Below, one piece after another: positions 14,722-14,877 of a DNA stretch of 27,235 nt. Both the position numbers and the translations under genes were made by a program. Source of the stretch: Escherichia coli (lineage in GTDB: Bacteria > Pseudomonadota > Gammaproteobacteria > Enterobacterales > Enterobacteriaceae); NCBI RefSeq assembly GCF_003334385.1, contig NZ_QOWN01000058.1; one strand, given 5' to 3'. Every line of letters starts with the position of its first letter. Within the stretch, counting starts at the first letter, position 1. The notes under the pieces are model-generated. The model was not told where the DNA came from. It worked only from the letters and a program-made list of their open reading frames with translations, and ran no database searches.

Positions 14722-14786
14722 ATTTCCTCCACATGTTGCCCGGGCAATTCTAGAGTAGCGGGATCAGATGGCAATCGCTTATTGGC

Positions 14787-14808
14787 AAAATGACAATTTT
14801 GTCATTTT
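14787..14808. promoter_or_regulatory. CusR box in the divergent cusR/cusC promoter region
   Basis: Perfect 22-bp palindrome AAAATGACAATTTTGTCATTTT in the intergenic region, matching the known CusR operator between cusRS and cusCFBA. Confidence 0.85.
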
Positions 14809-14877
14809 CCTGTCACCGGAAAATCAGAGGCTGGCGAGTAAAGTTGGCGGCATAAAATCACCAGAAATTATGAGCCT

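Follow-up and report, generated by a model that had tools for sequence, protein, structure and literature searches.

The 156 bp between the divergent genes cusR and cusC hold an inverted repeat, which raises the question of which regulator uses it and how one nearly symmetric site may serve two promoters that face away from each other. The original prediction had read the repeat as a perfect operator of the response regulator CusR. We analyzed the whole stretch of Escherichia coli DNA in which it lies, 27,235 nucleotides that we call the window. The repeat at 14787-14808 is, with a probability of about 95%, the CusR operator (the "CusR box") of the E. coli chromosomal cus locus. It is a well-studied copper/silver-responsive switch, and as such a feature that was already known.

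The cus locus and its surroundings

The genes on both sides of the repeat were identified by curated NCBIfam models, which all six cus genes match above the cut-offs. Several E. coli chromosomes match 14400-15200 with 100% identity, and 5337 of the 5426 complete genomes contain this region. One of the identical strains, 300709, has nfrA, nfrB, cusS, and cusR on one strand and cusC, cusF, cusB, cusA, and pheP on the other in its RefSeq annotation. Protein models and annotation thus agree on the cusRS/cusCFBA architecture that had been proposed. The extent of the spacer was also correct: the cusR frame, on the minus strand, reaches 14721 and cusC starts at 14878, as in the annotation of the identical strain. 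The locus comprises the following features.

12606-14048, minus strand: cusS, Cu(I)/Ag(I) sensor histidine kinase (NCBIfam NF007345, 984 bits against a cut-off of 423)
14038-14721, minus strand: cusR, response regulator of the OmpR/PhoB family (NCBIfam equivalog NF007346, 507.9 bits against a cut-off of 420)
14722-14877, no strand: divergent control region of 156 bp, with cusR on one side and cusC on the other
14878-21010, plus strand: cusCFBA operon (NCBIfam NF007347, NF007348, NF007303, and TIGR00914)
14878-16257, plus strand: cusC (NCBIfam above cut-off and RefSeq annotation)
16284-16616, plus strand: cusF (same evidence)
16632-17855, plus strand: cusB (same evidence)
17867-21010, plus strand: cusA (same evidence)

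The mechanically called cusS frame reaches a TTG at 14060, four codons beyond the annotated start at 14048, and the match to NF007345 begins at residue 5 of that frame. The annotated start overlaps the end of cusR by 11 nt, an arrangement that suggests translational coupling of the two genes.

Several other elements lie elsewhere in the window. At 1-5379 the window contains the right-hand end of a prophage that carries cargo genes; this part comprises the last portion of a tail fibre assembly gene, a Mn catalase, two ferritin-like genes, a general stress protein, a SAM methyltransferase, and ompT, and only 49 of 5426 E. coli genomes have it whole. Homology to strain 300709, which lacks the prophage, restarts at 5332. 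Because this point falls within the tRNA-Arg of 300709, the segment 5332-5379 looks like a 48-nt attR copy of the tRNA 3' end; ARAGORN found no complete tRNA in the window. A match to Rfam IS009 (RF02111, 200.7 bits) covers 1-182, is incomplete at the 5' end of the window, and overlaps the tail fibre assembly gene at its 3' end. Towards the other end, 26842-26997 is a full-length Rfam sok antitoxin RNA (84.4 bits) of a hokE/sok type I toxin-antitoxin locus; IS150, which lies just upstream of hokE in 300709, is missing here. The only other perfect inverted repeat with 10-nt arms in the window, ACTGCGAGCC-CGTA-GGCTCGCAGT at 2313-2336, sits between the general stress protein and ferritin-like genes, both on the minus strand, and is probably a terminator or an inter-cistronic hairpin. 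A G+C-rich repeat with 8-nt arms, GCCGGGCA-GA-TGCCCGGC at 23897-23914, lies between nfsB and ybdG and is likely the nfsB terminator.

The CusR box and the regulators that bind it

The 22 nt AAAATGACAATTTTGTCATTTT occur once in the window by exact search, on the plus strand, and are made up as follows.

14787-14808, no strand: CusR box
14787-14796: left arm, AAAATGACAA
14797-14798: centre, TT, at the nn position of the published box
14799-14808: right arm, TTGTCATTTT

The centre of the box (14797.5) and the midpoint of the spacer (14799.5) are two bases apart, in keeping with the central placement originally described, and the box lies 68 bp from the cusR start. Comparison with the reverse complement shows that the 10-nt arms are fully complementary and that symmetry extends to 20 of the 22 positions, the exception being the central TT. 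The description of a perfect 22-bp palindrome therefore stands for the two arms and fails for the centre. A search with the 14-nt core, allowing at most two mismatches, found no further CusR box in the window; the match with two mismatches at 1475 was set aside as being at chance level (1.08 expected).

The sequence fits exactly, with TT as nn, the palindrome AAAATGACAAnnTTGTCATTTT that has been given for the CusR site of E. coli between cusRS and cusC(F)BA (PMC11195947), and it occupies the same place between the divergent cusRS and cusCFBA. The K-12 box is credited in PMC11195947 and in bioRxiv 10.1101/2020.08.17.251918 to Yamamoto & Ishihama 2005. As predicted, the match to the known box is complete: K-12 MG1655 has the same 22 nt at the same offset in a spacer of the same 156 bp. 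The two spacers differ by three flanking SNPs only (14733 A/G, 14809 C/T, and 14830 G/C), all of which fall outside the box and outside the third half-site and predicted promoter hexamers described below. Since the sequence is identical to the K-12 site with reported binding, we take the box to be the CusR operator in this strain as well.

In vitro binding of CusR, on which the original prediction had made the assignment depend, is favoured by the literature on the identical K-12 sequence, in ChIP as in genomic SELEX. ChIP of CusR in K-12 gave one peak genome-wide, in the cusR-cusC spacer (bioRxiv 10.1101/2020.08.17.251918). Genomic SELEX with K-12 DNA gave a CusR peak in the same spacer both with and without acetyl phosphate, and unphosphorylated CusR bound this spacer only (PMC8249747).

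CusR is not the only regulator reported there. HprR, its peroxide/HOCl-responsive paralogue, recognises the CusR sequence, and the site could in principle serve mainly HprR, tying cus to peroxide/HOCl stress over copper. The single highest genomic-SELEX peak of HprR is indeed the cusR-cusC spacer, and the two proteins share a recognition sequence that they bind with differing affinity (PMC8249747; PMC9302797). However, the neighbouring regulator is the CusR equivalog, and its product scores 277.6 bits with the HprR model, below that model's own cut-off of 353. The box of HprR at hiuH has TTACA half-sites, not TGACA, and copper induction was shown, for a shared target, to need CusSR and not HprSR (PMC9302797). 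A site that belongs mainly to HprR is thus very improbable. The use of this sequence by HprR is cross-talk on top of the role of CusR, not a replacement for it.

Conservation of the box and reach of its core

Of 5426 complete E. coli genomes, 5334 have the spacer at an identity of at least 95%, and 5148 of these 5334 keep the box and its eight upstream nucleotides exactly. A natural variant is found in E. coli BS15R-A (locus L003, 151-306), where the box reads AAAATGACAT TT TTGTCATTTT and the symmetry is broken at the inner end of the left arm; the CusR protein accession of this strain differs from that of the strain identical to the window.

Across species, we scanned one genome for each of about 100,000 species with the 16-nt core AATGACAANNTTGTCATT. 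The scan gave at least 120 loci in arbitrary order, which serve as examples and not as frequencies. Among the matches listed, 6 of 120 loci adjoin a CusR homologue. The core lies 67-91 bp from the start of such a homologue in Enterobacter, Lelliottia, Providencia, Denitrificimonas, Collimonas, and one metagenome bin, and the homologues near the core in other species are 58-89% identical to CusR, again among the matches listed. As the set was gathered through the core itself, only position and context count as independent evidence. Within these limits the box is conserved beyond neutral drift: it persists near cusR homologues of as little as 58% identity, whereas the flanks of the aligned cus-like loci diverge (mean column identity 49%).

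The core alone is not diagnostic, because most of the matches listed are unrelated to CusR homologues, and it is the genomic context that carries the assignment. At least 45 or so of the loci listed (within L007-L117) come from Collinsella and have CG at the centre. In this genus the core is part of a longer conserved palindrome, CGAAATGACAACGTTGTCATTTCG, for example at 3556-3583 of L018, where it lies about 100 bp upstream of a gene for a LacI-family regulator, with a partial repeat, TAATGACAACGT, after it. Judged from this one locus, the palindrome is presumably an operator of the LacI type that has nothing to do with copper. Among the matches listed, five alphaproteobacterial contigs (L078, L081, L105, L119, and L121) share a recurring palindrome, ..AATGACAAGCTTGTCATTCTTGG, with no OmpR-type regulator within 1.5 kb of it; this group (...GCTTGTCATTCTTGG) is another unrelated family using the same core.

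These matches bear on whether the repeat in the window might be an A+T-rich palindrome that arose by chance, a hairpin or terminator in RNA, or an operator for regulators of a different family such as LacI. The occurrence of the 16-nt core by a LacI-family gene in Collinsella, at the one locus checked, speaks for the last of these, and the 36-nt stretch would fold as RNA at -10.6 kcal/mol (z = -3.7). Against chance, an inverted repeat with 10-nt arms and a spacer of at most 4 nt arose in only 6 of 5000 dinucleotide-preserving shuffles of the 156-bp spacer, the whole window has two repeats of such quality, the CusR box being one, and the repeat is kept by cusR homologues across species while the flanks diverge. 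Regarding RNA, the stem is A/T throughout apart from two G-C pairs in each arm, and its position is upstream of both predicted transcription starts. An intrinsic terminator or structured RNA was ruled out, as we found no terminator-like site in 14600-15000 and no Rfam match in the spacer. Operators of the LacI family typically have a central CG; the centre here is TT, against the CG of the Collinsella sites, and the neighbouring regulator is of the OmpR family, so we ruled out an operator of this type too. All these readings have a negligible probability; the conservation of the repeat and the published evidence of binding effectively refute them.

Two predicted promoters and a candidate third half-site

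The box had been proposed as an anchor for mapping both promoters, and it proved usable in this way: comparative alignment placed a predicted promoter on each side.

14747-14752, minus strand: predicted cusR -10, TAGAAT (promoter scan, 10 of 12)
14769-14774, minus strand: predicted cusR -35, TTGCCA (promoter scan; 16-nt spacer to the -10)
14811-14816, plus strand: candidate third half-site, TGTCAC, which repeats the right arm in direct orientation with an 11-bp period
14839-14844, plus strand: predicted cusC -10, TAAAGT, a TAnnnT placed 22 nt after the third half-site

Next to cusR, all seven aligned cus-like loci keep ATT(C/G)TA at the -10, and direct reading of the alignment shows that the sil, Lelliottia, and Enterobacter homologues keep TTGnnA at the -35. 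Transcription is predicted to start at about 14740, with the box centre at about -57.5 from it, a position off the classical class I phase. The spacing between the box and the cusR -10 differs in Providencia and Collimonas. On the cusC side, the T, A, and T of the -10 are invariant in the seven-locus alignment, and we found no recognisable -35, the bases at 14816-14821 being CCGGAA. The predicted cusC start is at about 14851, with the box centre at about -53.5; a further hexamer, TAAAAT at 14853-14858, would as a -10 put the start at about 14865. The literature searched, short of the primary 2000/2005 CusR papers, yielded neither a measured start for cusC or cusR nor a three-half-site layout for E. 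coli CusR.

The sequence GTCAC at 14812-14816 follows the right-arm GTCAT (14801-14805) by 11 bp and abuts the -35 position of the predicted cusC promoter. It is invariant in the seven aligned cus-like loci, though it lies outside the search pattern. We anchored 12 related promoters on the right arm: among them cusC (window and K-12), silC, silE, pcoE, and hiuH, the rest being those of Ralstonia copR, an Acinetobacter regulator, and the Providencia, Denitrificimonas, Collimonas, and Enterobacter loci. GT[CA]A stands at offset +11 from the right-arm GT[CA]AT in 11 of the 12, and at any other offset from 5 to 17 in none. A TAnnnT follows exactly 22 nt past the third half-site in 10 of 12 (at silE and pcoE a perfect TATAAT). 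In the relatives the third half-site lies at 8488-8503 of L127 (silE), at about 5101 of L131 (pcoE), and at 2893-2897 of L128 (hiuH). The rigid spacing, 11 bp and then 22 nt to the -10, is common to the cusC, silC, silE, pcoE, and hiuH promoters and to the distant cus loci. A universal three-site layout was rejected: the regulator on an Acinetobacter lwoffii plasmid has the box with CGATC in place of the third half-site. As far as these alignments tell, the layout is common, not universal.

The extra half-site is thus in direct orientation, one helical turn away, and on the promoter-proximal side of the box. We tentatively suggest, at somewhat less than even odds, that the CusR operator at cusC is a unit of three half-sites, an inverted pair plus the in-phase GTCAC, and not just the 22-bp repeat. 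A mirror-image third half-site is absent on the cusR side, where 14780-14784 reads TATTG. In E. coli O19:H7 strain 730V1 (L004, 2501-4212), an IS903B inserted directly behind ...AATCAGAGC in the spacer separates the box and its third half-site from the cusC -10, and ISKpn26 truncates cusC; this strain is a predicted natural knock-out of the cus switch.

Related operators share much of this layout. The copper boxes of SilR and PcoR (in the silR-silC spacer and at silE and pcoE) have in common with the window the core TGACAAnn(T/A)TGTCAT, an A(A/T)CAGA block, and the third half-site at +11 followed by 22 nt and the -10. They differ in their central dinucleotides and weaker A/T flanks, and silE and pcoE also differ from cusC in their perfect TATAAT. 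The sil-pco loci, unlike cus here, are plasmid-borne and have regulators of their own, SilR being about 87% identical to CusR; pcoE carries TGACAAnnTTGTCAT and is reported as a direct CusR target (PMC11195947). The hprR-hiuH box, CATTACAAAATTGTAATG, is likewise an inverted repeat in a divergent spacer between regulator and target, bound by CusR and HprR, although its half-sites are TTACA/TGTAA and not the TGACA/TGTCA of the CusR box. HprR binds more weakly there than at the cus spacer (PMC8249747). At hiuH the third half-site is GTAAG at +11, with TATCCT exactly 22 nt further on, as at cusC.

A precedent for a working third half-site, from the same regulator family, is AgrR of Cupriavidus metallidurans, which binds a 6-4-6 inverted repeat together with an in-phase direct repeat (PMC7380067). 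A GT>CA change in the direct repeat on the promoter-proximal side lowers activation, interference footprinting supports a role for it, and the authors proposed a Type II activator position (PMC7380067). The direct repeat beside an inverted repeat has the same layout as the CusR box with GTCAC. AgrR is, however, another regulator in another organism, active in its unphosphorylated form and with the direct repeat at some operators only. By this analogy we infer that the third half-site may function in the operation of CusR. The right arm and the third half-site, with their 11-bp period, also resemble the pho box of PhoB and the tandem sites of OmpR, in which a head-to-tail repeat replaces the -35 (tandem-site behaviour of the family is summarised in PMC7380067). 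The CusR box differs from this norm in being an inverted repeat, which is unusual in the family; as read here it implies a symmetric CusR dimer on the box.

The position of the box relative to the predicted promoters is relevant to another possibility, namely that it is chiefly a repressor operator, with unphosphorylated CusR holding cusCFBA off when metal is absent and induction amounting to derepression. CusR without inducers has been described as a repressor of the single target cusCFBA (PMC8249747). But the box lies upstream of the -35 position at both predicted promoters, which is an activator and not an occluding position, and a cusC promoter without a -35 hexamer should be weak when it lacks an activator. 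In addition, reporter and evolution work has phospho-CusR activating both PcusC and PcusR (PMC10920338, PMC11522558, PMC12589874), and cusRS deletion strains lose induction (PMC10920338, PMC11522558, PMC12589874, PMC9302797). We consider a mainly repressive role unlikely. Because PMC8249747 reports both binding and repression by unphosphorylated CusR, activation may not be the only role of the site, and the third half-site by the -35 could allow some occlusion in a minor dual role.

The preferred reading remains that of an operator from which CusR activates. In K-12, the sensor CusS responds to periplasmic Cu(I)/Ag(I) by autophosphorylation and then phosphorylates CusR, which on the inverted repeat turns on cusCFBA and, in positive feedback, cusRS. 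The predicted promoter anatomy, with cusC devoid of a -35 and the box upstream of both promoters, is consistent with such copper/silver- and CusR-dependent activation. The cusC promoter, with its -10 and no -35, would depend on the activator. The right arm together with the third site would form a pho-box-like head-to-tail pair with an 11-bp period where the -35 is missing; this tandem pair could put a CusR subunit beside RNA polymerase and bias the symmetric box towards cusC. The left arm would complete the symmetric box and face the cusR promoter. Because the -35 and -10 of that promoter are near consensus (10 of 12), it can, on this model, give the basal supply of sensor and regulator.

For this strain, the analysis confirms an intact cus switch, in which neither the box nor the third half-site nor either of the predicted promoters differs from K-12. 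It re-identifies a textbook regulatory site and as such adds nothing to copper biology. The conserved third half-site at fixed spacing is the sole element that might be new for E. coli. If it holds true, a third site on the efflux-operon side only could explain unequal divergent output from a symmetric box, and the three-site layout could explain how CusR, SilR, PcoR, and HprR cross-activate each other's targets. The comparative map also gives coordinates of predicted -10 elements for the design of reporters and biosensors based on PcusC. A functional third half-site would refine the model of how an OmpR-family regulator works on an inverted repeat and the picture of target sharing among the Cus, Sil, Pco, and Hpr circuits, which would be a modest, specialist advance.
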